From: Caldora sp.
Lineage (GTDB): Bacteria; Cyanobacteriota; Cyanobacteriia; Cyanobacteriales; Coleofasciculaceae
Assembly (NCBI GenBank): GCA_965222765.1
Contig: CBDCVG010000043.1
Location: 161,053 to 225,052 of the forward strand
Direction of reading: 5' to 3'
Length of the DNA: 64,000 nt
Shown here: one piece after another, positions 3,203 to 23,682 of the stretch
How the letters are laid out: each line of letters begins with the position of its first letter
Numbering within the stretch: position 1 is the stretch's first letter
Program-made: the position numbers and the translations under genes
The notes under the pieces: generated by a model
Databases searched by the model: none
What the model was told of the DNA's origin: nothing
The model's input: only the letters and a program-made list of their open reading frames with translations

Positions 3203-4588
3203 TTATAAAGAGCGAATGATTCTAAAACCAATATTTTGAGAGTTTTTGTTAGTATTACCGTGCCAACGGTAAGCAGAGCGACATCGTAGGGGTTCGTTAC
3301 GCCATGAGCCACCACGCATGACACGAGTTTGATTTTCACTATTGTCTAGCCATTTATCTCCATTAGTAGGTGCATCATTGTAACTATCATGCCAATGATC
3401 TAAACACCACTCCCAAACATTACCATGCATATCGAACAGTCCAAAAGCATTAGCTATCTGGAAATGTCCCACTAGAGTAGTTTTTTGAAGATAAATTCCT
3501 TTAGGTTCTGAGCGATAGGGATAGCGACCATCATAATTAGCTAAGTTGCTAGTAATAGTTTCCCCAAAGTGAAAAGGGGTTGTAGTCCCAGCACGACAGG
3601 CATATTCCCACTCTGCTTCACTAGGAAGGCGATACTCGTGACCTGTTTTTTGAGATAAGCGATCGCAAAACTCGACCACATCATGCCAAGAAATTTCGGT
3701 AACGGGGTGACTTTTACCTCCAAGACGCGACGGACGAAGTTTGAGCTTCTGACGGACTTCAGTTAAAGAAGCAACTTCTTTCCACTGTGCTTTTGTAATA
3801 GGGTACTTGCTTATTAAAAATGGTTTGATTGCTACTGAGTGTTGAGGTCTTTCATTAGAGTATCGCTTTCCTTCTGTTTCCGGTGAACCCATTAAAAATG
3901 CTCTTCCCGGAATATAAACCATCTCTAAAGTTACCCCATTGCTAAGGTCTTCTGTTAAGTAGTGAGCTTGTCTTTGACGACGGCTAATCTCTTTGCCTTG
4001 GATATCTACCGTCACTGTTGTAAATTCAAAGGCTTGAATACCAGGAAGTGATGGGATAACTAACTTAGCTTCTTCTGACTCCTTCAATTCTTCTGCATTT
4101 TGACTAGAAGTAGAAAGGATAAACTGATTATCTGGCTGCCTAGTGAATTGTGACTGGGTTGGAGATTTTAAATTAGTATTGCTATACGTGCCTGTAAAAT
4201 TTTGCGAAGTGACTTGACCAAAGTCTGAGTTGAAACGTTTCAATGGTTGACTGCTTTTGTACTCGATACATTCGCGATTGAGTTTTTGAGTATCTAAAAC
4301 TGTAATCTCCGCGATGATATTGTTTAGTTTATTCCTGGCTTCAAAACCAACCCACGCACTATTTGCAAACTCATTAAGGAATTTTAATGATTGAACTTGT
4401 CCTTCACAGAAGATGAGTTCAATCAATTCTGAAAAAAAGACTAAATTATTTTTTTCAAAAGAATCTATTTTGGCACTTAGATGCTCAAATCCTGTGATCA
4501 TCAAGAGCGCTCTACGTTCTGGAACAGTTTGAGTCTTCGGCAAATAGGCTAGCAACTCCACTAACTGAGATTTGATACTCATAATCAT
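3203..4588 (-). CDS. Effector protein with an N-terminal adaptor (EAD-like) domain and a C-terminal formylglycine-generating-enzyme (FGE-sulfatase/SUMF1) domain
   Basis: The C-terminus carries RLPSEAEWEYACRAGTTTPF...GNVWEWCLDHW...MRGGSW...RSAYR (the FGE-sulfatase family signature). The N-terminal ~90 aa (LVELLAYLPKTQTVPERRALLMITGFEHLSAKID) are homologous to the N-terminus of the adjacent protease gene. Confidence 0.8.
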   Translation of the reverse strand: MIMSIKSQLVELLAYLPKTQTVPERRALLMITGFEHLSAKIDSFEKNNLVFFSELIELIFCEGQVQSLKFLNEFANSAWVGFEARNKLNNIIAEITVLDTQKLNRECIEYKSSQPLKRFNSDFGQVTSQNFTGTYSNTNLKSPTQSQFTRQPDNQFILSTSSQNAEELKESEEAKLVIPSLPGIQAFEFTTVTVDIQGKEISRRQRQAHYLTEDLSNGVTLEMVYIPGRAFLMGSPETEGKRYSNERPQHSVAIKPFLISKYPITKAQWKEVASLTEVRQKLKLRPSRLGGKSHPVTEISWHDVVEFCDRLSQKTGHEYRLPSEAEWEYACRAGTTTPFHFGETITSNLANYDGRYPYRSEPKGIYLQKTTLVGHFQIANAFGLFDMHGNVWEWCLDHWHDSYNDAPTNGDKWLDNSENQTRVMRGGSWRNEPLRCRSAYRWHGNTNKNSQNIGFRIIRSL

Positions 4589-4630
4589 TGAACTTTAGAT
4601 GCTTGTAGAACCTCTCCAAAACTGGGTAGT

Positions 4631-5686
4631 CTATTGTGCTGCCCTGAGCAGATTTACAAGCTGTGAAGGTAAGTCAGCTAAAATACTCTCTACCAGTATG
4701 CCTTCATTTCTGAAGTAACGCTGCTGAGTTATTGGTTCAGAGATATTAACTCCAGCATGATGCAAAGCAACAACCTCCCACATATCATTAAAGACTGGAG
4801 AGCCAGAAGAGCCTGGTAAGGTAGAGGTTATATACTGCACCACATTACTACCCACGTATTGAACAAAGTTGTTTTGTAGTGAAATTTGCTTAGGTTGTCC
4901 TAATGGGTGCTGAATAATATTAACTCGGTTATCCTTACGAATCACTTTCGGTAAGAGTGGTAAACAGCTCCATTTTTGTCCAGGTTCCCCTTCAAGTTGA
5001 ACTAAAGTATAGTCAAGAGCTTTGTTTGTATGAAAAACTCCATTAAATTTAGCTCGATACTCATCTGTTGGTTGTGCTTCTCCTTGAAAGTTCTCTTCGT
5101 AGTTAAAACGAAAAATTGTATCTGACAGTAAATTTGAATCAGGTAAAACATGATTGTTAGTCATAAACAAATCCTGAGTCACTAGAAATCCTGTACCTGA
5201 CCAACGTTCTTGGCTTGTTCGTACCCCAACATAGGCAACTGACTGCCCTACTTGAATCCCCTTTTGCAAGAATGAGATTGGGCGCAGCGTATTCTCACCA
5301 ATTATGTTCTCTAACACCTCTGTGGGAGTTTCTCTACCTCGCCACTGATCAATAGCAGGTAAAGTAGAGATAGGAGTCATCATCTCATACTTCGTCAGCA
5401 ACCTGTCTAAAAATTCTTGCTGCTGAACTCCTACAAAGCCTTTCAGAGTGTTTAAGAACAACCCTAGTGCCTCATGGTCATAGGTTAAACGCCCGCGATT
5501 AGACAAATAGCTCACGATCTCACTAACTGCCACAAATGAAGCACCAGAAAGATCAATCATTGGAGCTAATTCTTGTAGTCCTGCTAGCTCTAAAATTTGC
5601 TGACGCGATCGCTGTGTAGTTAGCTCTGGTAGCTCTTTTAGGAGAGTTATTAACTGCTTGCGGTCTTCAATTTCTAAATTGACCAT
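4631..5686 (-). CDS. Effector protein with the same N-terminal adaptor (EAD-like) domain and a C-terminal trypsin-like serine protease domain
   Basis: The protease motifs are GTGFLVTQDLFMTNNHV and GSSGSPVF (Ser-His catalytic region). The N-terminus MVNLEIEDRKQLITLLKELPELTTQRSRQQILELAGLQELAPMID aligns with the FGE gene's N-terminus. The first ATG is at 5686; a TTG at 5707 is also possible. Confidence 0.8.
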   Translation of the reverse strand: MVNLEIEDRKQLITLLKELPELTTQRSRQQILELAGLQELAPMIDLSGASFVAVSEIVSYLSNRGRLTYDHEALGLFLNTLKGFVGVQQQEFLDRLLTKYEMMTPISTLPAIDQWRGRETPTEVLENIIGENTLRPISFLQKGIQVGQSVAYVGVRTSQERWSGTGFLVTQDLFMTNNHVLPDSNLLSDTIFRFNYEENFQGEAQPTDEYRAKFNGVFHTNKALDYTLVQLEGEPGQKWSCLPLLPKVIRKDNRVNIIQHPLGQPKQISLQNNFVQYVGSNVVQYITSTLPGSSGSPVFNDMWEVVALHHAGVNISEPITQQRYFRNEGILVESILADLPSQLVNLLRAAQ

Positions 5687-5758
5687 ATAAATAACAAACT
5701 TGTGCAAATAATGCCGAAAAACAAACGTTTGAAACTGAATAACTCGTGATACTCCGAA

Positions 5759-10332: not shown

Positions 10333-10631
10333 TCTTGCTAAATTTATATAGTTGGGATCCTCTTCAATAAGCACTAAGGGCAAAGCGGTGTACCACTTTA
10401 CCTGCACCGAAGACCTAATATATGCTTCGGTTACCACTTGGAAAAAAGTTGCGGTTGTCAGGAATCTAGTACAAGAAGGCTCCAATGCAGAAGACTGTAA
10501 TGTTTATGGTATCTGCTTTTTTGCCTATCGTTAAGAAGCTTGATTATTTCCACCGTACTGCACTAGATAGCCACCTTGTAGCCTTATTGAGCGAGTCATC
10601 TGTTTATACCCTTACAAAACCCTTATTGTTG

Positions 10632-12245
10632 ATGAAATTTTCCTACGAACTTTCAACAGCTTTGCTTGGTGCAGCAGCAATCATACTGGTGCAACCTCAA
10701 ATCACTCTAGCTTTGACAGCTTCGGAGGTTAATGCTATTGCTGAAAAGATTACTGTATTGATTGCGCAAGAGGAACAACAAGTTGCTTCAGGAGTGATTG
10801 TTGGCAAAGAAGGAAATACTTATTTTGTTTTGACTAGTCAACATGTAGTACAAACTGAGGGTCAGTACCAGATTATGACTCCTAGTAATGCTAAACATTC
10901 TGTTAACTACAGCAACATTATCAAATTACCTGGGATTGATTTAGCTATCTTACAATTTATTAGCCCAAACATTTATCAAGTTGCTACCTTTGGTAATTCC
11001 AGCGAAGTAATTGTGGGTTCTCCAGCTTATATTTCTGGGTGGCCAAAACCTGGTTTTGCTCTCCAAGATGAAGCACCAATTCGTCTTTTTCACTCTGGAC
11101 AAATTTCAGCTCGTCAACCTCTCAAAGATGGTTACGAGTTAATCTATACTACCCCTACTCGTCAAGGAATGAGTGGAGGACCGGTGCTCAATGAAAATGG
11201 CCAGCTGATTGGTATTCATGGGCGTACTGATTTACCTACCCTAGAAACAGATCCCAAGCCTTGGGGAGTTAATTTAGGTATTCCCATCAACACGTTCATT
11301 GAATTAGCTCCTAGTCTTTATACTGAACAAGGAGAAATCAAGCTCAAGGCGCAAGCTTACCAGGAAGCCATTGCCTATTTTAACCAGGTACTAAAGTTTA
11401 ATCCCAACTCTGCTGCTGCCTATAATGGGCAAAGTTATGCTCATTTTGCTCAGACAGGGTATGAGGAATCTATTCAGAAGGCAACCCAAGCAATCAAGAA
11501 TAACCCTAAATTAGCTGAAGCTTACCTCATCCGGGGGGCTAGCTATGCTCAGCAAGGAAGTCACCGCCAAGCAATTGAGAATTTTAACGAAGCGATCGCA
11601 ATTAATTCTCGTTTTGCTGATGCCTATGCTTTGCGAGGGGTAAGTAAGGCAAAAATAGGGGATTCTAATGGAGCTTATAAGGATGTTGAACTGTCTCTTA
11701 AACTAGCTCCTAAAAGTTCTATTGCCTACATCTGCCTTAGCCAAATTCACTCCCTTGTTGGCTACAGGATAGGTGCAGGGGAGGCTAGTAGGATTGCAGA
11801 TGAACTCTTAGATACTTCTAGGGAGATAAATCCTTATCAAATGACGCTCAATCAAGTACTGGAAAGCCGTTTACTTCAAGATCTTGTTGTACAGACAACG
11901 CCAACTTCTTCTAACCCTCAGACAGCAGTAAATCCAGGAAATGAGTACTATACCAACACCATTAATCTAGTTGAGGCTTGCAAGTCTTATGATGACTCGC
12001 CTCACCAAAATGAGGCACTGCTGTGGCTACAAGATCAAATCCCTAAGTCTACTCTCAAAACATTTACGATGATGTGGCGACTGCAACTCATCTTTGACAT
12101 GGATAAGGAGCCGATGGAGCTCGTTAACGTTTGTCAGCATTATGAGGGTAAGGAACACCAAGATAAGGCTTTAGAAAGGCTACAGACTCGAATTAACCAG
12201 GTAACAATTATTGAGTTTGCCCAAAGGTGGTTCCAAACTCAGTAA
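10632..12245 (+). CDS. Secreted trypsin-like serine protease with TPR repeats and a C-terminal domain of unknown function
   Basis: Signal-peptide-like start MKFSYELSTALLGAAAIILVQP. The protease motifs are VLTSQHVV and GMSGGPVLNENGQLIGIHG, followed by about four TPR units. An alternative upstream ATG lies at 10485. Confidence 0.75.
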   Translation: MKFSYELSTALLGAAAIILVQPQITLALTASEVNAIAEKITVLIAQEEQQVASGVIVGKEGNTYFVLTSQHVVQTEGQYQIMTPSNAKHSVNYSNIIKLPGIDLAILQFISPNIYQVATFGNSSEVIVGSPAYISGWPKPGFALQDEAPIRLFHSGQISARQPLKDGYELIYTTPTRQGMSGGPVLNENGQLIGIHGRTDLPTLETDPKPWGVNLGIPINTFIELAPSLYTEQGEIKLKAQAYQEAIAYFNQVLKFNPNSAAAYNGQSYAHFAQTGYEESIQKATQAIKNNPKLAEAYLIRGASYAQQGSHRQAIENFNEAIAINSRFADAYALRGVSKAKIGDSNGAYKDVELSLKLAPKSSIAYICLSQIHSLVGYRIGAGEASRIADELLDTSREINPYQMTLNQVLESRLLQDLVVQTTPTSSNPQTAVNPGNEYYTNTINLVEACKSYDDSPHQNEALLWLQDQIPKSTLKTFTMMWRLQLIFDMDKEPMELVNVCQHYEGKEHQDKALERLQTRINQVTIIEFAQRWFQTQ

Positions 12246-12946: not shown

Positions 12947-15076
12947 TTACGAGATCAGAAACAGCACAATTAAGGAGATTGCGATCGCTAACATCAAAGT
13001 ACCTAAAATGATATCTCCTAGGTGATACTCATGGGGAGTTGCTTTCGTAGATTGTACTTTATCTCCCTTATCCTCCCATCTCCCCATCTCCGTGTCAGGT
13101 GCGTCTCGCGTCTCCGCGTCTCCATTAATCTCCCTATCTACTACATTTACTTGCAACTCTGTATGAGGGGTTTCAGAAGTTATATCCTGCATTGACTCTA
13201 GCCATTCTGCTACCCGTTGAGCTTCTGATAACTCCGGTTTCAGTTTAGTGAGGGCTTCTCGCCATAGAGCAACAGCTTTGTGTTTGTTGCCCTGTTGTAC
13301 ATAGAGAATACCCATATTGACTAGAGTTTGACCTTCTTTGTTAATATCTCCTAGTTTTGTGAAGCTGCCTAGGCTCTGTTCGTAACAATCCCTAGCTTTA
13401 AGCCAATCTCCTTGCTGGGAATAGATATTAGCTAGATTGCCCAAACTCATCGCTTCTGCATGAGAGTCTTCCAACTCCCTGAAAATGCTTAGACTCTGCC
13501 CATAGCGCTCGATTGTTTTCCCCCAATCTCCTTGCCTAAAATAGACTTTACCCAGGTTAGTTAAGGTTTGAGCTTCTTCTTGGGTATTGCCTAGCTCGCG
13601 GGTTGCTTCCAAAGCCCACAATTGAGTCCGTTCCCAGTCAGCCAAGTAAGCACGGATATCAAAAAAGTTAACTAAGCTCTTGGCAAAGGGAACTACTATA
13701 TCCCATGCTTGAGCTTGGTAAGCCCATTCTAAAGAAGCTAACAAGTTGCTGCGCTCAGTCTCAAACCAGTTTAAGGCTGCCGCCAGCAAGTGTGGCTCAA
13801 TAGCTTCTATAGATTGGTGGTTCAAGACTTTCGTGAAATTCTCTGAATTCTCAAGATACCAGCGTGCCACCCTCAAACGAGTTGCTTGCCGTTCCTCTAC
13901 TAGCTCCTCTTGAGCCAATTGCCCTCGGGCAAAAGAGCGCACCAAATCGTGGAAACGGTAGCGCTCCCTTCCAACAGGCTCCAACAGTTGCCTCTCAACT
14001 AGATAATGTACAGATTCCTTGGCGACAGCTGGCTCAACATCTAACAAGGAAGCAGCTAAGGGGAGCGTAAAGTTAGGTCCGGTTAACAATCCCAGTAAGC
14101 GAAACAGGCGAGCAGCAGTTGTATCGAGCTCCTGATAGCTGAGAACAAGGCTAGCTCGTACATCCAAATCGCTCAGGTACAGTTGTGCTAGTCGTTGCTG
14201 CTCATCAGCAAGTTGATGTGTGTATTCTGCTAGTTCCCAGTTTGGTTGATTTCGTAGAGTATTACCAGTGATGCGGATAGCTAGGGGTAGCCCATTGCAA
14301 AGATTGATCAAGTTTTTGCTTGCTTCCAGTTCAGCCTGAGAGCGTTCTACTCCTACCAGATCCCGTAGCAGAGCCAAGGCATCTAGTTCCGTCATCACTT
14401 CTAAGTCAACGACAGTAGCTTCCCTTAGATTCTCAAACTGTTTGCGCGTTGTAACTAGGACTCCACAAGTGGGACTATTTGGTAGCAAAGGCCGTATCTG
14501 AACCTCATCCCGAGCATTATCCAGCAGTACCAAAGCTCGTTTATCTGAGAGCAAGGAACGGTAGAGTTCAGTTCTCTCTTTGAGAGTTTCAGGTATCAAA
14601 TCGTCTTCGATACCCAAGACTCGCAAAAAACTAGCTAACACTGCCAATGGCTCCTGGCTCTGGCTCTCACTTCCCCTGAGATTGATGTATAGTTGAGCAT
14701 CTGGAAAATACGACTGTAGTTGATGGGCAATGTGGATAGCAAGAGTTGATTTACCGACTCCTGCTATACCAGTCAATGTACAGAGCTTAACAAGGCTCTC
14801 GCCTTGTAAGGCAGAAGGAAAGAGTCCTTCATCCTTCTTCAAAGTGGGGTCTTTTTCTTTAAGCTTTGGTGTTGCCTGTTGCAAACAAGCTTTCACCTGC
14901 TCTAATTCTGCTTGGCGACCTATAAAGTTGGCAATATCAGAAGGGAGCTGATGTATGGATGTAGGCTGAACTAAGGTACTTTCAAACAGCTGCATGACTT
15001 TTTTATTGTCACCAGCTACCACGCCTTCTACTAAATCGTGAAAAATTAGTTTGTACTTTGGTCTATCTTCAGCCAT
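12947..15076 (-). CDS. NB-ARC (STAND) ATPase with TPR repeats and a C-terminal transmembrane anchor
   Basis: The P-loop is GIAGVGKSTLA and the Walker B-like motif is LVLLDN. There are about five TPR units (...NLGKVYFRQGDWGKTIERYGQSL...). The C-terminus ends ...LGDIILGTLMLAIAISLIVLFLIS (a single TM helix). Confidence 0.8.
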   Translation of the reverse strand: MAEDRPKYKLIFHDLVEGVVAGDNKKVMQLFESTLVQPTSIHQLPSDIANFIGRQAELEQVKACLQQATPKLKEKDPTLKKDEGLFPSALQGESLVKLCTLTGIAGVGKSTLAIHIAHQLQSYFPDAQLYINLRGSESQSQEPLAVLASFLRVLGIEDDLIPETLKERTELYRSLLSDKRALVLLDNARDEVQIRPLLPNSPTCGVLVTTRKQFENLREATVVDLEVMTELDALALLRDLVGVERSQAELEASKNLINLCNGLPLAIRITGNTLRNQPNWELAEYTHQLADEQQRLAQLYLSDLDVRASLVLSYQELDTTAARLFRLLGLLTGPNFTLPLAASLLDVEPAVAKESVHYLVERQLLEPVGRERYRFHDLVRSFARGQLAQEELVEERQATRLRVARWYLENSENFTKVLNHQSIEAIEPHLLAAALNWFETERSNLLASLEWAYQAQAWDIVVPFAKSLVNFFDIRAYLADWERTQLWALEATRELGNTQEEAQTLTNLGKVYFRQGDWGKTIERYGQSLSIFRELEDSHAEAMSLGNLANIYSQQGDWLKARDCYEQSLGSFTKLGDINKEGQTLVNMGILYVQQGNKHKAVALWREALTKLKPELSEAQRVAEWLESMQDITSETPHTELQVNVVDREINGDAETRDAPDTEMGRWEDKGDKVQSTKATPHEYHLGDIILGTLMLAIAISLIVLFLIS

Positions 15077-15159: not shown

Positions 15160-15696
15160 TCAGGCATTACCAGGAATCAAAAGCTCCATTGAAGTCATGA
15201 GAGTACTAAGTACAGAGGTTCTAAGATTAGGATTAACTATCACAATGGGAGGGCGATTACTCTCACTTACATAACCTAACTGGAGCGTAATTTCTTCTGA
15301 AGACAAGGCTCCTGAACAATCCATATGGGTTAAACCAATAATCATCGGTATTTCTACTCGCTGTTCCATAAACGAGAGAATTGAGCGAGCATAGGGGAAA
15401 TCATCAGGTCGATGAGCTGCTACCAACAGGATATAAGTCTGAGCATCTTGAATCAAAATATCCCACATGAAATCAAAGCGGGATTGACCTGGAGTACCGT
15501 AGATATGTAAATCAATATCAGGACCAAATGTAACTTTACCAAAGTCGAAAGCAACTGTGGTCTCTTCCTTATCTATGGATATTTCATCAGTAACAGTTCG
15601 TTCTATTTGTACAACTTCAATTTCACTGGCAGTTCGCACAAAGGTAGACTTTCCTGCTCCAACAGTCCCTGTTACTACTAAACGCATATTTTTCAT
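15160..15696 (-). CDS. Roadblock-associated small GTPase (COG2229 / conservon CvnD-like), copy 1
   Basis: The P-loop is GTVGAGKST, the switch II motif is YGTPGQ, and the NKxD equivalent is THMD. It is ~60% identical to the protein at 16313..16948. Confidence 0.75.
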   Translation of the reverse strand: MKNMRLVVTGTVGAGKSTFVRTASEIEVVQIERTVTDEISIDKEETTVAFDFGKVTFGPDIDLHIYGTPGQSRFDFMWDILIQDAQTYILLVAAHRPDDFPYARSILSFMEQRVEIPMIIGLTHMDCSGALSSEEITLQLGYVSESNRPPIVIVNPNLRTSVLSTLMTSMELLIPGNA

Positions 15697-15849
15697 GACA
15701 TTTTGCTCCGAAAAAATATTTGTTATTGGTTGTTTGTCTCAGCGTTAGTGTAGATATTTAAGGTAGATAGTGAAATAAACAAATAACCAACAACAAATCA
15801 CAAATACTTACTGCTACTATGGTTTCGATAGACAAGTAGCAAGGCTTAA

Positions 15850-16221
15850 CTAAGCTAATGCCGGCTTAAGCTCGGTAACAGTGCGTTTAATTTCTAACAT
15901 CAGCACTCCCTGCTTTGCTGCTTTACCAGCTAGTACGAGAAAGACTGCATCTTCACCACAACTAGTCAAAATGCTAAAGCCTTCATTACCCTCAACATAG
16001 ATGCGATCAATTGCACCCCGGACAAGTTCCTTTCCAATACGTTCCCCTAAAGAAAGCATAGCAGCCGACATAGCTGATACCCGTTCGTCATCCATACCAC
16101 CAGGTAAACTGGAGGCTAAGGGCAAACCATCAGGAGTAACCATTGCTGCTCCCTGAACATCACTAGTGCCAGTGACAAAGCTTTGTAATATCTGTCCAAG
16201 TTTTTCAGAATTGATTGCCAT
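15850..16221 (-). CDS. Roadblock/LC7 (MglB-like) domain protein, copy 1
   Basis: 123 aa reading ...GAAMVTPDGLPLASSL...AMSAAMLSLGERIGKEL...FLVLAGK..., a typical Roadblock fold sequence. It differs from 17344..17715 at only 2 of 123 residues. Confidence 0.8.
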   Translation of the reverse strand: MAINSEKLGQILQSFVTGTSDVQGAAMVTPDGLPLASSLPGGMDDERVSAMSAAMLSLGERIGKELVRGAIDRIYVEGNEGFSILTSCGEDAVFLVLAGKAAKQGVLMLEIKRTVTELKPALA

Positions 16222-16312
16222 AATTGTGTTCCTACTTTAATTAAATTGAATATTTATTTTTATCAAAAATTAGATGATTTTTTGACAAAAATCAATTAGA
16301 GATTTAGCTATT

Positions 16313-16948
16313 TTAAAAATCTCGTGACAAAGATCTTGTGGATAATTGATAGGAATGTTTTGTCTGAGACTGAGCTGCTTGACTAACTGCTCGCCTCGTT
16401 ATCAATTGCTCAAAATTACATTGAGAAAGCATCAGAGCCATCGAAGCCATAACAGCTTCAATTACTGAATGTTTATCCCTAGGATTTACTCGCACAAACA
16501 GGGGTTGTTGTAACCTATTGATATAGCCCAGATTTAACATTATTTCTTCTGGAGCCTTTGCTTCTGGATAATCCATATGGGTTATACCAATAACCATTGG
16601 GATTTTGACTCGCTGATTCATAAACGTAATAATCTGACGAGCTTGGCGGAAATCATTGGGGCGGTGGGCTGCTACTAGCACAATATAAGTGTGAGCTTTT
16701 TGGATCAAAAAATCCCACATAAAGCTAAAGCGAGATTGACCGGGAGTGCCATAAATTTGTATATCCATGGCAGAACCAAATGAAATGCGACCATAGTCGA
16801 AGGCAACAGTAGTTTTTCTCTTAAGCTGGGCTGTTTCATCGGTAGCAGTGCGTTCTGTACTGATAGCTTCAATTTGACTAATTGTCTGCACAAAGGTAGA
16901 CTTTCCAGCTCCTGGAGTGCCAGCTACAACTAAACGCATAGTTTTCAT
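16313..16948 (-). CDS. Roadblock-associated small GTPase, copy 2, with a ~30-aa C-terminal extension
   Basis: The motifs are GTPGAGKST, YGTPGQ and THMD. The tail QCNFEQLITRR...SRDF is absent from copy 1. Confidence 0.72.
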   Translation of the reverse strand: MKTMRLVVAGTPGAGKSTFVQTISQIEAISTERTATDETAQLKRKTTVAFDYGRISFGSAMDIQIYGTPGQSRFSFMWDFLIQKAHTYIVLVAAHRPNDFRQARQIITFMNQRVKIPMVIGITHMDYPEAKAPEEIMLNLGYINRLQQPLFVRVNPRDKHSVIEAVMASMALMLSQCNFEQLITRRAVSQAAQSQTKHSYQLSTRSLSRDF

Positions 16949-17343
16949 TTGATTCTGCTCCGAAAGATTATCTAAAATTCATCCAACCAAATTAACTCGG
17001 TAACTAGGGAATTTTACATGGGGGTTTTAAACCTCCATGTAAAACCTAGTATCTATAGAAATGGAGAGCTCTTACTCCTAATGCTAATAACTAAAAAAAT
17101 GTTAACTATCAACCGTTAACTATTCACTGTTGAGACCATGCACCAATACTGAAATCTGGCAGAATCTTTGCCTATACCTAACCTAATTGAACTGATGGTA
17201 GTTACTGCATCAAACTTGAGCAATCAAACCTGTTAAGATGCATGGTAGTTCTACGTCAAGTCCACCTTAAATTCACTCTGATGACCAGATAATTGCTAAT
17301 TAATCGTTCCTCGATTAACCTACAAACAATTGGCTAGATTTAA

Positions 17344-17715
17344 CTAAGCTAAAGCAGGCTTAAGCTCGGTAAGAGTTCGCTTAATTTCTAACATTAGCAC
17401 TCCCTGCTTTGCTGCTTTACCAGCTAGTACTAGAAAAACTGCATCCTCACCACAACTAGTCAAAATGCTAAAGCCTTCATTACCCTCAACATAGATGCGA
17501 TCAATTGCACCCCGAACCAGTTCCTTTCCAATACGCTCTCCTAAAGAAAGCATAGCAGCTGACATAGCTGATACCCGTTCGTCATCCATACCACCAGGCA
17601 AGCTAGAGGCTAGAGGTAAACCATCAGGAGTAACCATTGCTGCTCCCTGAACATCACTAGTGCCAGTGACGAAGTTTTGTAGTATCTGTCCAAGTTTTTC
17701 AGAATTAATTGCCAT
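17344..17715 (-). CDS. Roadblock/LC7 (MglB-like) domain protein, copy 2
   Basis: ~93% nt and 98% aa identical to 15850..16221. Confidence 0.8.
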   Translation of the reverse strand: MAINSEKLGQILQNFVTGTSDVQGAAMVTPDGLPLASSLPGGMDDERVSAMSAAMLSLGERIGKELVRGAIDRIYVEGNEGFSILTSCGEDAVFLVLAGKAAKQGVLMLEIKRTLTELKPALA

Positions 17716-17799
17716 TGTTGTATTCCTGCTTATTCCTACTTGAATTTCAGTTAGTGGGATCTGGTTGAGTTGTATACCTTGAAGCTAGCAAACTGAGAT

Positions 17800-18354
17800 T
17801 TACATAGTATTTGCACCAGTTTTGATCAAACGCCTGAAAAGACCTTCAGTCCAACCAGTTTCTCGGAGAACAGCAGCTGAACTAACTTCTACGTAAGCTT
17901 GCTCAATGAAAGCTAAATCAATCATGCAAATTCTGCTTAAAGCATCAAGCAATTCTATAGGTTTGCCATCTACTTTTAGTTGTTTGCGAGCTTCATTAAT
18001 TACGGTTGCCATTGCTGGCACAACGTGTTGAGGTCCAATGCCAATTTGTACATGTACTAAACCAATGCGCCAACGACGATCAGCATAAGAATCACCCCAT
18101 TCATCCATCCCATTGAACATTTCGGCAAACCATTGAACAAAGGTTTCCCGTAGGCGATGCATACGTCCTTCTTTTTCATTCAAAATAGCGCTCATTTCTG
18201 GATCGCGACCCAAGTAAGCATAAAAATGATCTGCCATTTCTGGAGCAATTTCTTTACCCCAATCGAGATTAGATTTTAGGATTTCTTTGTCTTCTGCGGT
18301 AAAAGCAACACGCTTTTCCATTGTAGTCATAAAATCATGAGGATTTAAGGACAT
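17800..18354 (-). CDS. Single-domain protoglobin / globin-coupled-sensor-type globin (no output domain)
   Basis: Contains HRLRETFVQWF...YADRRWRIGLVHVQIGIGPQHVVPAMATVINEA, the sensor-globin signature. The ATG is at 18354; an upstream TTG is at 18381. Confidence 0.7.
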   Translation of the reverse strand: MSLNPHDFMTTMEKRVAFTAEDKEILKSNLDWGKEIAPEMADHFYAYLGRDPEMSAILNEKEGRMHRLRETFVQWFAEMFNGMDEWGDSYADRRWRIGLVHVQIGIGPQHVVPAMATVINEARKQLKVDGKPIELLDALSRICMIDLAFIEQAYVEVSSAAVLRETGWTEGLFRRLIKTGANTM

Positions 18355-18959
18355 ACATCTCCTTCTTGTATCAAAAAGCAATCAAGTTCATTTCATTTCT
18401 AACAATTTAATATGCTACTGTCTAGTTTTATTTTGACATTTTGTTTAAATTTAAGAAAAATATTTTTTTTGTTTTTAGAGTAATTTAGTTTTTTTTTTAA
18501 AGAGAAATTAAGATTGTCGAATTAATTAAAAATGTATTAATTGTAACAATTTAAATTAATGATTTTTACCCTAAAATCTTTTTCTATCCAAATAAGTGCA
18601 AGGAAAAAGCGTCATGAGACTCAAAAGATGAGCACAAATGATGAAAATCTACCTTGTGAATCATGGATAATCACTCCGGAACTGTTGCCTGTTGCCTGTT
18701 GCCTCTCGTCACAACCCGACTTATTCAGCAAGCCCTACTTAAATTATCGCCAAAATGCTTGACCCCTACTGTCCCCTAAAACTGTTTTATCTTTTCAAGA
18801 ATTATTCAGTTCTATCCGGATGGTTTGTCAATGTATTGTTTTTGTATTTCGAGTGGGAGCAAACCTATATTGAATAAGAGTTTTCACGATTATGACTGCC
18901 CAATCCCTCAAGGAATGGGCTTCCCGCCGCTTTTGGTGAGAATTGGCACAGTAATAGAT

Positions 18960-20854: not shown

Positions 20855-21138
20855 TTAAATGTGTCTTAGTTTACCAATTTCCAATTCGCAATTCCCAATT
20901 CGCAATTTAATAATTCCCAATTTAATAATTCTCAAGTTAGGATATGAGGAGTAGCTAGCAGTAGTGAACATTACTCAGGCCAGACCTGTGTTCTTTAGGA
21001 ACACAGATATTTTTGGTCGCATGCTTACCTTTTGATTACCCCACCAACAATATTCTCAACATTGGCAGGGTAATACTCTTCATATCACTGGGACATCTTC
21101 TCTTTGGAAGCAACTAACCTCAATTGGAGAGATTATTT

Positions 21139-23682
21139 ATGCAAGCAGATGGCTTACCTATTAGTCCACAAGTTATGGACTCCACAGATGCTATCAAGTC
21201 TGCTATTACCAACAACTTTCCCATCGTTGCTCCTGATATACCTCTTATTGATGCTCTGAAACTTATGAGTCAGGAGGGGACAGCTCTTAATAATGGTAGA
21301 GCTCGACCCTTAAAAGTGCCTAGCAATCCCACGATCCCCTCATCTTTAGCAGGATGTAGTTGTGTCTTGGTAGCACAAGATAAACAACTTTTGGGGATAA
21401 TTACTGCAGCAGATGTGGTGCAATTGGTAGCTACAGGAAAGGAGTTAGAGAAATTTGCGATCGCTGAAGTGATGCAGCCATTGGTTATCACTTTGAAGCA
21501 ATCAGATTTACCAGCTCCTAGAGCAATCACGTCTTTATTTTATCAGCACCAAATCTCCCATATACCAGTTTTGAGTGATCACGGAGAAGTGGTAGAGATT
21601 ATTACTCCGGAAAATCTTCTGTACCAAACGGCGGAACACCAGCAAGCGGAAGAAGCTCTCTCAAAAATCAACCAACAGTTAGAAAACAGAGTAGAAGAGC
21701 GAACAGCAGTTCTTTCTTCCACTGTTGAGCAATTCCAACAAGAGATACACCAACGCCAACAGATAGAAAAGGAACTCCGCAAGAGTCAGATACTCTATCA
21801 AGGTATTGTTGAAGATCAAACGGGATTGATCTGCCGTTTTTTACCCAATGGCACGATTACCTTTGTTAATCAAGCCTACTGCGATTATTTCCATAAGCAG
21901 CCAAAGGAAGTGATTGGCTACCAGTCTTTACATCTAATGCCAATAGAAAACTCACCTCTGTTGGCAGATATAATTGCTGCTGTAAGTCCTGAAAACCCAG
22001 TCTTTAGGGCACAATATCAGGTTACTTTACCTACGGGTAAGATGGGTTGGCATCGGTGGACTATTCGTGCCTTCTACAATAGCGAAGTGGAAAGCGCTAA
22101 TGTTCTTGAACCAACTTGCTTGTTTAAATTACAGGCAGTAGGTTGGGATATAACCGAATCAAAGCAAGTCGAGCAGGTACTCCGCGTCAGTGAGGAACGT
22201 TATCGGTTGTTGGCAGAAAACTCCACTGATCTGATTTCTCGTCGTGATTTGACAGGGGTTTATCTCTACGCCTCACCAGCCTGTCGTACTCTACTAGGTT
22301 ATGAACCGGAAGAATTAGTGGGATTATCTAGTAACGACTTGATTCATCCCCAGGATTTGGAACATGCTCAGCAATGCCGAACCAATATTCTTCAAACACA
22401 AGATAATTGTACTAGTTCCTACCGCATCAGGAAAAAAGACGGCAGTTATATCTGGTTTGAAACTACTAGTAAAACAGTAATTGATCGAGATACTGGTGCA
22501 CCCAAAGAATTTGTCTCAGTCTCCCGAGACATCACTGAACGCTACCTCTCACAAGAGCGTATGCGTTTGTTTGAGTCAGCAGTTACCAATGCTAACGACG
22601 TGATTCTGATCACTGACGCAGATACTATTAATGGTTCTGGACCGAGGATTGTGTATGTTAACAAAGCCTTTACTCAGATAACTGGTTACTTAGCAGAAGA
22701 AGTGATTGGGAGGACACCGCGCATCCTCCAAGGTCCCAAAACAGACCGCAGCCAATTAAATAAAATTCGGGCTGCTATCCTTAAGAAGGAACCAGTTCAG
22801 GCAGAGTTAATCAACTACTCTAAAGACGGTTCTGATTACTGGATAGAACTAAATATCGTTCCCATTGCTGATGAGCGGGGGCAGTTTACTCATTTTGTTG
22901 CCATACAACGGGATATTACCAAACGTAAACAAGCCGAAGCGGAAATGCTCAAAGCACTAGCAAAGGAGCGAGAACTAAACGAGCTGAAGTCTCGCTTCAT
23001 TGCTATCACTTCCCATGAATTCCGTACTCCTCTTGCCACTATCCTTTCTTCTGCCGACCTATTAGAGAAATTTCCCTGTACAAAAGCAGAAAAGCAGGGG
23101 CTGTTTAATCAAATTCAAACCTCTGTCAAGCATATGACTCGGCTTCTAGAAGATGTGCTGTTTGTAACCCGTTCGGAAGCAGGAAAACTAGAGTTTAAGC
23201 CTACCCAGCTTGATCTGACGCAATTTTGTAGTGCTCTAGTCAAGGAAGTAGAAATTGGTTTAGGCAAATACCACCGACTATATTTTACGAGTTGTGGTAT
23301 TTGCAGCGGCTTCATGGATGAAAAACTACTCCGTAGCATTCTCACTAATTTGCTTACCAATGCTATTAAGTATTCTCTCCAAGGTAGTAGAGTCAAAGTG
23401 AGGCTCGCTTGTGAGGATGGGAAAGCGATCTTTCAGGTTGAAGATGAGGGCATCGGTATTCCTGTTGCAGATCAACAACATCTATTTGAAAGCTTTCATC
23501 GAGCCAGCAACGTTGGCAGTATTTCGGGCACTGGGCTAGGATTGACCATTGTCAAGAAATGTGTGAAGTCCCACGGGGGAAAAGTTGCTGTGGAAAGTCA
23601 GGTGGACAGGGGCACTACTTTTACTGTCACACTACCAATGAATTATGAACCATCAAAACAAGAAAACTATTCTGGTGATTGA
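21139..23682 (+). CDS. Sensor histidine kinase with an N-terminal CBS pair and multiple PAS domains
   Basis: The H-box is ITSHEFRTPLATI, with a complete HATPase_c region (N, G1, G2 boxes: EDEGIGI, GTGLGLTIVKK). There are three PAS-like segments. GGAG lies 9 nt upstream of the ATG. Confidence 0.85.
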   Translation: MQADGLPISPQVMDSTDAIKSAITNNFPIVAPDIPLIDALKLMSQEGTALNNGRARPLKVPSNPTIPSSLAGCSCVLVAQDKQLLGIITAADVVQLVATGKELEKFAIAEVMQPLVITLKQSDLPAPRAITSLFYQHQISHIPVLSDHGEVVEIITPENLLYQTAEHQQAEEALSKINQQLENRVEERTAVLSSTVEQFQQEIHQRQQIEKELRKSQILYQGIVEDQTGLICRFLPNGTITFVNQAYCDYFHKQPKEVIGYQSLHLMPIENSPLLADIIAAVSPENPVFRAQYQVTLPTGKMGWHRWTIRAFYNSEVESANVLEPTCLFKLQAVGWDITESKQVEQVLRVSEERYRLLAENSTDLISRRDLTGVYLYASPACRTLLGYEPEELVGLSSNDLIHPQDLEHAQQCRTNILQTQDNCTSSYRIRKKDGSYIWFETTSKTVIDRDTGAPKEFVSVSRDITERYLSQERMRLFESAVTNANDVILITDADTINGSGPRIVYVNKAFTQITGYLAEEVIGRTPRILQGPKTDRSQLNKIRAAILKKEPVQAELINYSKDGSDYWIELNIVPIADERGQFTHFVAIQRDITKRKQAEAEMLKALAKERELNELKSRFIAITSHEFRTPLATILSSADLLEKFPCTKAEKQGLFNQIQTSVKHMTRLLEDVLFVTRSEAGKLEFKPTQLDLTQFCSALVKEVEIGLGKYHRLYFTSCGICSGFMDEKLLRSILTNLLTNAIKYSLQGSRVKVRLACEDGKAIFQVEDEGIGIPVADQQHLFESFHRASNVGSISGTGLGLTIVKKCVKSHGGKVAVESQVDRGTTFTVTLPMNYEPSKQENYSGD

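Follow-up and report, generated by a model that had tools for sequence, protein, structure and literature searches.

Gene content of the Roadblock-GTPase locus

We analyzed a 64-kb stretch of DNA from the cyanobacterium Caldora sp. (contig CBDCVG010000043.1, positions 161,053 to 225,052 of the forward strand; hereafter the window, whose coordinates are used throughout), in which two modules, each a Roadblock (RB) gene followed by a small GTPase (G) gene, lie in one gene cassette. The module copies are termed RB1/G1 and RB2/G2, and the corresponding loci of related genomes L001-L079. The main question addressed here is how the two Roadblock genes have remained nearly identical next to GTPase genes that have diverged, for which gene conversion is the probable answer. 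Every gene between 12.9 and 18.4 kb is located on the minus strand, and the order of transcription is globin, RB2, a 395-nt spacer, G2, a 91-nt spacer, RB1, a 153-nt spacer, G1, and a STAND ATPase with NB-ARC and TPR domains. Each of the six gene assignments is backed by a Pfam match:

17800..18381, minus strand: opening gene of the cassette, a single-domain sensor globin of the protoglobin family (Pfam Protoglobin, 76 bits against a cutoff of 25)
17344..17715, minus strand: RB2, Roadblock/LC7 (MglB-like) gene, probable conversion donor (Pfam Robl_LC7; DG pair at residues 31-32)
16313..16948, minus strand: G2, MglA-family small GTPase of 211 aa with a C-terminal tail (Pfam ATP_bind_1, Ras, Arf, Roc)
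15850..16221, minus strand: RB1, Roadblock/LC7 gene, probable conversion recipient (from synonymous distances, tree, and residues)
15160..15696, minus strand: G1, MglA-family small GTPase of 178 aa without the tail (Pfam matches)
12947..15076, minus strand: closing gene of the cassette, a STAND ATPase with NB-ARC and TPR domains and a hydrophobic C-terminus (Pfam NB-ARC, TPR_12)

Both GTPases match the Pfam families Ras, Arf, and Roc and contain the P-loop GxxxxGK[ST] at residues 9-17; the successive motifs read GTVGAGKST, TT, GTPGQ, and THMD in the G1 protein, and GTPGAGKST, TT, GTPGQ, and THMD in the G2 protein. In MglA proteins of groups 2-5, of which group 5 includes cyanobacterial members, the third GTPase motif is GTPGQ instead of DxxGQ, and the second has a threonine and no arginine finger (PMC4316618). 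The window proteins agree in both respects, with YGTPGQSRF at the third motif of each and the threonine found within ETTVAFDFG in the G1 protein and KTTVAFDYG in the G2 protein, the arginine finger being absent. At the fourth motif, [NT]KxD, both have THMD, retaining the threonine and the aspartate with histidine in place of lysine; group 2 MglA proteins also depart there, with NxFD (PMC4316618). Sequence matches of the GTPases in the Protein Data Bank (PDB) were confined to weak ones to Arf, and the exact G2 protein sequence is not on record. The Roadblock protein scores 54.4 bits with Robl_LC7 (cutoff 23), has TPDGLPLA at residues 29-36, is encoded next to a GTPase gene, and matches the Roadblock structures 7F8M, 9JUE, and 3LEQ (CvnB5), the last at E = 1e-9. 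Judged by these motifs and matches, G1 and G2 are predicted MglA-family GTPases of groups 2-5, and the Roadblock proteins their predicted MglB-type partners.

The globin matches the PDB entry 8H17 (Tlr1989 of Thermosynechococcus; E = 4.6e-80, about 70% identity). When it is aligned with 5OHE, a globin-coupled histidine kinase, its segment RIGLVHVQIG falls opposite RIGRVHVRIG. The histidine in this segment, which we take to be the proximal heme ligand, is conserved. The STAND protein (12947-15076) gives a partial match, well below the model cutoff, to the AfsR-like model of NCBIfam; its end is hydrophobic (LGDIILGTLMLAIAISLIVLFLIS), pointing to a membrane anchor at the C-terminus.

Divergence of the Roadblock and GTPase pairs

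The two Roadblock genes differ at 24 of 372 nt (93.5% identity), and their proteins are 98.4% identical, with two amino acid changes, S14N and V115L; the other 22 differences are synonymous. The original prediction, made from the sequence of the window, had put these identities at about 93 and 98% with mostly synonymous differences, in agreement with the measured values. By the Nei-Gojobori method, the pair has a synonymous distance (dS) of 0.30 and a nonsynonymous distance (dN) of 0.007. Identical codons are used at 99 of the 121 positions that share an amino acid, where 47 ± 5 are expected from the codon usage of the window (z = 10.7), and the similarity of the pair is thus far above chance or codon bias. 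The GTPases G1 and G2 were likewise measured close to the identity of about 60% claimed for them, with 58% at the protein and 70% at the DNA level (dS 0.74, dN 0.30). The C-terminal tail of G2, predicted as 30 aa, is present as an extension of 33 aa at about 16316-16414. The longest exact run is 68 nt in the Roadblock pair and 19 nt in the GTPase pair.

The high identity of the Roadblock pair extends over a 406-nt blastn segment with 91.9% identity between the copies, beyond which the spacers do not align:

17326..17731, minus strand: high-identity tract, copy A, comprising the RB2 coding sequence with 16 nt upstream and 18 nt downstream (blastn)
15832..16237, minus strand: high-identity tract, copy B, comprising the RB1 coding sequence with short flanks, the probable converted segment (blastn)

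A search for conversion tracts, proposed with the original prediction, thus found one tract with unalignable spacers outside it and no significant sub-tracts within, the 24 differing sites showing no significant clustering (P = 0.12). The Roadblock pair of the window thus gives no hint that part of it was converted again later.

Conserved gene order in cyanobacterial relatives

One genome per species was scanned with the RB2 protein, yielding 79 loci, nearly all from filamentous cyanobacteria, and the six cassette proteins were mapped on 80 loci (the window and L001-L079). The closest loci, L001-L004, belong to metagenome-assembled genomes (MAGs) of Symploca and Caldora, the nearest to the window being L002 of Symploca sp. 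SIO2C1 at a dS of about 0.1. Of the 80 loci, 56 have a globin gene immediately before a Roadblock gene, 70 have a GTPase gene after a Roadblock gene, and 23 have an NB-ARC gene after a G1-type GTPase gene. The full order globin-RB-G2-RB-G1-NB-ARC is found in L001, L008, L014, L021, L024, and L059. No published description of a protoglobin-Roadblock-GTPase gene trio was found in the literature searched, nor any relevant paper on Tlr1989/8H17, and the photoglobin paper does not mention GTPases; the triad is apparently an undescribed conserved neighborhood.

In the GTPase tree the paralogs never group by genome; instead, G2-type genes are united across genera in a clade supported by 72% of bootstrap replicates. 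In every genome examined, dN between G1 and G2 is 0.24-0.35. The tail of G2 is of low complexity, and its end motif, YQxxxxxxSR[DG][FR], is conserved across genera, which makes the tail an old orthologous feature and hints at a short linear motif for docking that is peculiar to GTPases of the G2 type. The duplication must be old, because the positions and features of the G1-type and G2-type genes are the same from genus to genus, the tail motif is conserved, and dN is about 0.3 in every genome examined. The two-module arrangement is older than the divergence of several cyanobacterial families. A tandem duplication after which the copies diverged at differing rates, as originally suggested, is therefore not borne out; the order is ancient, and 'tandem duplication' applies to it only in a deep historical sense.

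Comparison of copy number among the relatives, another check proposed with the original prediction, revealed both loss and multiplication of Roadblock genes. L004 (Symploca SIO2E6) has no RB1, the gap between its G2 and G1 genes being 98 bp, and L002 keeps only the first 66 nt of RB1 (4986-5051, corresponding to 16155-16221 of the window), followed by a deletion of about 350 bp that rejoins near 15806. The order RB-RB-G-G occurs in L027 and L029, and Roadblock arrays in L039 and L049.

Further variations of the neighborhood were observed. In 43 of the 80 loci, the second (RB1-type) Roadblock gene is immediately preceded by the gene for a protein of about 160 aa, termed X (e.g., L008 12173-12658; L039 12038-17216), which is absent from the window and L001-L004. 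The X protein gave only sub-threshold V4R matches (E = 0.03 and 0.07 in two paralogs), and a PDB sequence search with it returned nothing meaningful. The older layout looks like globin-RB-G2 plus X-RB-G1-STAND, with X lost in the Symploca clade. Coleofasciculus loci (L039 11416-17897; L049; L032; L048; L057) contain tandem arrays of up to five units of X and Roadblock, and the Roadblock copies inside one such array have mutual dS of 0.2-0.5. In Anabaena azotica (L079 10001-12741) the order is Roadblock-GTPase-PATAN(DUF4388)-protoglobin, which connects the cassette with PATAN-domain proteins; a link to PATAN was noted for the neighborhoods of group 5 MglA (PMC4316618).

Homogenization of Roadblock genes across genomes

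The Roadblock genes were compared in a neighbor-joining tree of nucleotide sequences with codon bootstrap. All Roadblock genes of the Symploca clade form one clade (100%), within which RB1 and RB2 of the window group with RB2 of L002 (98%). Elsewhere in the tree, the Roadblock paralogs cluster by genome in L007 (100%), L009 (100%), L018 (96%), L021 (99%), L024 (100%), and L026 (88%), and both copies share genome-specific amino acid substitutions in L021, L018, and L024. In L008, L014, L016, and L059, RB1-type and RB2-type clades stay separate. The dS between Roadblock genes within a locus is 0.07 in L066, 0.14-0.35 in L007, L009, L024, and the window, and about 1.0-1.2 in L008, L014, L016, L027, and L029. 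Unhomogenized pairs have 85% amino acid identity, a dN of about 0.10, and a dS of about 1. Roadblock orthologs evolve at approximately 0.3 times the rate of GTPase orthologs, and 0.3 × 0.30 gives about 0.09, which matches the dN of these pairs. Since selection alone gives 85% amino acid identity and a dS of about 1, the 98% identity and dS of 0.30 in the window require homogenization. These results indicate that the Roadblock genes are homogenized repeatedly, in separate lineages.

Exact runs span 23-68 nt in Roadblock pairs, even when the pairs are old, and at most 19 nt in GTPase pairs. The very slow evolution of the Roadblock protein would keep the two copies near enough for homologous recombination, so that they may overwrite each other from time to time, whereas the GTPase genes, at 70% identity and with runs of at most 19 nt, would be past its reach, judging from known properties of recombination. 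The loss of RB1 in L002 and L004, the RB-RB-G-G orders, and the Roadblock arrays suggest that Roadblock copies are largely interchangeable.

Probable conversion of RB1 in the window lineage

The evidence from the window and its closest relatives points to a conversion event in which RB2 probably overwrote RB1, followed by purifying selection, within the ancient conserved cassette. The tract in which RB2 would have replaced RB1 includes the coding sequence and reaches from about -16 to at least +22 nt. The event would fall between two splits, the earlier one from the lineage of L001, L003, and L004 and the later one from Symploca SIO2C1 (L002), and purifying selection alone (dN/dS about 0.02) would have acted since then.

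The first line of evidence is given by the synonymous distances. RB1 of the window has a dS of 0.30 to its own RB2 and 0.40 to RB2 of L002, versus 0.91 and 0.71 to the RB1 genes at the same position in L001 and L003, while the species distance measured by GTPase dS is about 0.45 between the window and L001 and about 0.1 between the window and L002. The flanks of the gene agree with this. Before its ATG, RB1 of the window has the RB2-type Shine-Dalgarno (SD) region AAGTAGGAACACAA, whereas RB1 of L001 and L003 has its own leader, CAAAGGATTTTTTTATT; its stop codon is TAG, versus TAA in L001 and L003; and its 3' flank, TTAAGCCTTGCTACTTGTCT, matches the flank of the L002 RB2 gene to about +43, whereas the RB1 genes of L001 and L003 have a flank of their own. 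The flanks of RB2 in the window match those of the RB2 genes at the same position in L001, L002, and L004. In addition, RB1 of the window lacks the RB1-type residues I8, V11, E91, and LL120-121 of unhomogenized genomes. The direction of conversion, from RB2 to RB1, follows from the RB2-type flanks and the missing RB1-type residues.

The timing follows from the RB1 remnant of L002, which at all four sites that distinguish RB1 from RB2 of the window in these 66 nt has the RB1 state. Because the remnant carries RB1-specific variants, the conversion predates the split of the window and L002. A recent conversion was therefore not borne out, the dS of 0.30 and the even spread of the differences (P = 0.12) pointing in the same direction. 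Under a clock constraint, maximum likelihood gave log likelihoods (lnL) of -1120.8 and -1122.5 for late conversion versus -1128.6 for orthology, with resampling of estimated log likelihoods (RELL) giving 0.96 versus 0.04. The original prediction had offered conversion of the Roadblock genes and an older duplication with specialized GTPases as alternatives; the results indicate that both hold together, the duplication being old (synteny, tail, dN) and the Roadblock genes homogenized (clustering by genome, RB2-type flanks).

Several observations weigh against a conversion of this kind. The bootstrap interval of the lnL difference under the clock is wide and includes zero for one tree variant. 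Without the clock, parsimony hardly separates the placements of the window RB1 within the Symploca clade (146 versus 147 steps), and unrooted maximum likelihood separates the topologies by only 2 lnL units; the account therefore leans on the clock model, pairwise dS, and flank characters. The dS values have standard errors of about 0.07-0.2 because there are only about 90 synonymous sites, and an internal mosaic or tract structure is undetectable in the window pair (P = 0.12). The spacer between G2 and RB1 in the window and L002 aligns with that of L001 and L003 over only about 25 nt; because most of it is unalignable, in situ conversion and a re-inserted copy are not fully separable. Finally, the 14 nt upstream of the L002 remnant (4972-4985, TAAGGAGGAGAAGG) differ from those upstream of the window RB1 (16222-16237, GTAGGAACACAATT), while the coding remnant is RB1-like; this mismatch may reflect pseudogene decay in L002, or else the window lineage may have undergone a further, small conversion at a later time.

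Further observations concern the RB2 genes of these lineages. RB2 of L002 (3386-3754) is almost identical to RB2 of the window except for a dense cluster of differences in its last 30 nt (nt 339-366), which may be a small recombination patch or a chimera of the MAG assembly. The spacer between RB2 and G2 in the window (about 17320-17326) lacks approximately 130 nt that are found immediately after the RB2 stop codon in L002 (3778-3905) and L001. RB1 of the window retains the start of this ancestral flank.

Alternative explanations

One alternative to conversion is that the common ancestor of the window and L002 lost its native RB1, and that the place between G2 and G1 was filled again later by insertion of a new, short-flanked RB2 copy. 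We regard this course of events as improbable, although loss of RB1 does occur (L004 lacks the gene and L002 has the internal deletion), the number and order of Roadblock genes vary widely in relatives (RB-RB-G-G in L027 and L029, arrays in L039 and L049), and most of the G2-RB1 spacer of the window and L002 does not align with L001 and L003. It demands a precise insertion of about 410 nt at the exact ancestral position and in the ancestral orientation, and no repeats or mobile-element scars were seen. Moreover, orthology with the relatives is seen both at the start of the G2-RB1 spacer and in the G1-proximal spacer, and the recurrence of by-genome clustering in many lineages with the same synteny is a signature of conversion.

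That the Roadblock genes are old duplicates which never converted, their near-identity being due solely to strong purifying selection and codon preference, is very unlikely. The protein is indeed extremely conserved (80% identity between Symploca and Anabaena; ortholog dN/dS about 0.04), and the orthology topology is not rejected by unrooted maximum likelihood or parsimony. Selection on the protein, however, does not hold synonymous sites, at which the window pair differs by 0.30 and the pairs of L008, L014, and L016 by about 1.0-1.2; distinct pairs reach the 85% identity and dN of about 0.10 that the relative rates of Roadblock and GTPase genes predict. The 99 identical codons in 121 against 47 expected, the RB2-type non-coding flanks of the window RB1, and the RELL value of 0.04 for orthology under the clock also stand against it. 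An assembly artefact, by which one Roadblock-GTPase unit was wrongly expanded or chimerically joined, had been named in the original prediction as the finding that would undermine it. We found no point in its favor and give it hardly any credence: the copies differ at 24 sites (6.5%), lie in unique, unalignable spacers, and flank two GTPase genes that are only 58% identical in protein, and the same six-gene order occurs in independent assemblies of other species. Conversion of RB1 by RB2 within the old cassette is thus the explanation we prefer.

Leaders, hairpin, and inverted repeats of the spacers

The spacers of the cassette contain the following elements:

17012..17044, no strand assigned: inverted repeat (hairpin) between RB2 and G2, lying 63 nt ahead of the G2 start codon (fold and pattern search)
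16949..16971, minus strand: G2 translation-initiation leader with SD GGAG (plus strand TGCTCCGAAA at 16956-16965; invariant in L001, L002, and L004)
15697..15719, minus strand: G1 translation-initiation leader with SD GGAG (plus strand TGCTCCGAAA at 15704-15713; CGGAGCA conserved in L001-L004)
15718..15798, no strand assigned: inverted repeat with 20-nt arms and a 41-nt loop in the RB1-G1 spacer, also in L002
16252-16296, strand not given: AT-rich inverted repeat with 18-nt arms in the G2-RB1 spacer (repeat search)

The nucleotide alignment of G1 and G2 begins about 23 nt upstream of the ATG. A conserved leader had been claimed before both GTPase start codons; the 12-mer TTTGCTCCGAAA is exact only before G1 (15702-15713) and reads TCTGCTCCGAAA before G2 (16954-16965), so that what the two share is the core TGCTCCGAAA, the reverse complement of which holds the SD sequence GGAG about 10 nt before each ATG. 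This leader is a ribosome-binding region kept from the old duplication.

The hairpin between RB2 and G2 is present as predicted, 8 nt away from the position first assigned to it (17012-17044 rather than 17020-17052). It folds with -17.6 kcal/mol (z = -4.5) and has an A.C mismatch on the sense strand. L001, L002, and L004 all have the stem core, TTTTACATGG...CCATGTAAAA, without change. One stem position varies, pairing as A-U in L002 and as G-C in L001 and L004, whereas the window has A.C there. The hairpin occurs once in the window; its exact pattern was found elsewhere only in L002, with a variant in L001 and L004, and it was not found outside the Symploca clade among the loci searched. It does not have the features of a Rho-independent terminator: the sense strand after the stem reads AAAAUUCCCUAG, which is no U-tract, and the hairpin is not among the calls of the terminator scan. 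Candidate roles are RNA stabilization, RNA processing, or the binding of a protein to the palindrome, with none of them favored by the data.

The terminator scan made two calls, which are the same coding stretch inside RB1 and RB2. Promoter-like sites were fewer than in shuffled sequences, with none on the coding strand within the cassette. An Rfam scan of 12-20 kb at E ≤ 1 gave as its sole match a spurious plant microRNA on the RB1-G1 inverted repeat, and the fold of the whole RB1-G1 spacer was not significant (z = -1.4).

Near the cassette, 3203-5707 and 10485-12245 encode a protein with EAD8 and a trypsin-like peptidase, a protein with an FGE-sulfatase domain, and a protein with a trypsin-like peptidase and TPRs. 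Domains of these types have been described for NTPase-centered conflict systems of multicellular bacteria; the eLife 2020 paper on conflict systems does not mention Roadblock, MglA, MglB, or globin.

A functional model for the cassette

The gene order suggests a model in which a globin-controlled Roadblock switch acts on two GTPases, and we give this model an even chance of being right. The globin would sense a gas or the redox state and act via a Roadblock dimer on two GTPases with different outputs. The GTPases would be specialized, G2 with its conserved tail and G1 tied to the STAND protein, and one type of Roadblock protein could serve both. More tentatively, and with considerable doubt, the cassette may be a G-protein switch for gas or redox sensing that has so far not been described from filamentous cyanobacteria. 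Its common hub would be the Roadblock dimer; the soluble protoglobin, and in many relatives the X protein as a second small ligand-binding protein, would signal through it to two specialized MglA-type GTPases and a membrane-anchored STAND ATPase. Repeated conversion would keep the hub interchangeable between modules, with copies able to pair with each other and to act on both GTPases.

If this is true, an interchangeable hub would explain both the loss of a Roadblock copy (L002, L004) and the multiplication of copies into arrays (Coleofasciculus). The conversion account predicts that one Roadblock protein serves both GTPases, a prediction supported by the two relatives that have naturally lost a copy. 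The locus would display the interplay of gene conversion and selection in one operon, the slowly evolving regulator staying a single type while its GTPase partners specialized. The globin-Roadblock-GTPase order also gives a manageable starting point for learning the signals and targets of the non-motility MglA/MglB systems of groups 2-5.

Comparison with known systems

The cassette resembles the MglA/MglB pairs of groups 2-5 (Wuichet and Søgaard-Andersen, 2015; PMC4316618) in the GTPGQ and TT motifs and in the adjoining Roadblock/LC7 gene with its DG pair. It differs from them in the tandem modules, the protoglobin in front, the STAND ATPase behind, and THMD at the fourth motif. Like the actinobacterial conservon (CvnA-D), it is a signaling unit with a Roadblock protein and an MglA-family GTPase that is duplicated within genomes, and 1:2 GTPase:Roadblock arrangements from adjacent duplicates have been described for conservons. 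In contrast to conservons, it has neither a CvnA-type histidine kinase nor CvnC, and a soluble globin stands at the sensor position. An assignment to the conservons was rejected, as all six cassette genes are accounted for and none is CvnA or CvnC; the nearest histidine kinase gene (21124-23682), of the PAS/HisKA type, is on the opposite strand and about 3 kb away. A coupling of globin to Roadblock/LC7 is known from HGbRL of Methylacidiphilum infernorum (PMC4476040), the genome of which has a separate MglB/MglA-like pair elsewhere. There the domains are fused, the globin belongs to another family, and the protein is reported to be confined to one genus, whereas here separate adjacent genes are found in 56 of 80 loci.

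As to the mode of evolution, tufA/tufB, psbA, and psbD, the latter two cyanobacterial, are cases of recurrent concerted evolution of syntenic paralogs (Wang and Chen, 2018; PMC6053082). Neither Roadblock nor MglB appears in the text of that paper or in the examined parts of its gene tables. With these cases, the Roadblock pair shares distinguishable contexts combined with by-genome clustering, similarity at synonymous sites, recurrence, and membership in protein complexes. It differs in that the paralogs are 1.5 kb apart in one operon, the homogenization is intermittent (dS 0.07 to about 1.2), and the partner genes are unconverted. Of the signs by which concerted evolution is recognized there, clustering by genome despite synteny and synonymous similarity beyond that expected from protein selection are both found here. 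With regard to independent duplication, synteny and the short flanks favor in situ conversion, although most of the G2-RB1 spacer is unalignable to L001 and L003. The evolutionary process is well known from tuf, psbA, and psbD, and the Roadblock pair is a new example of it on known protein families.

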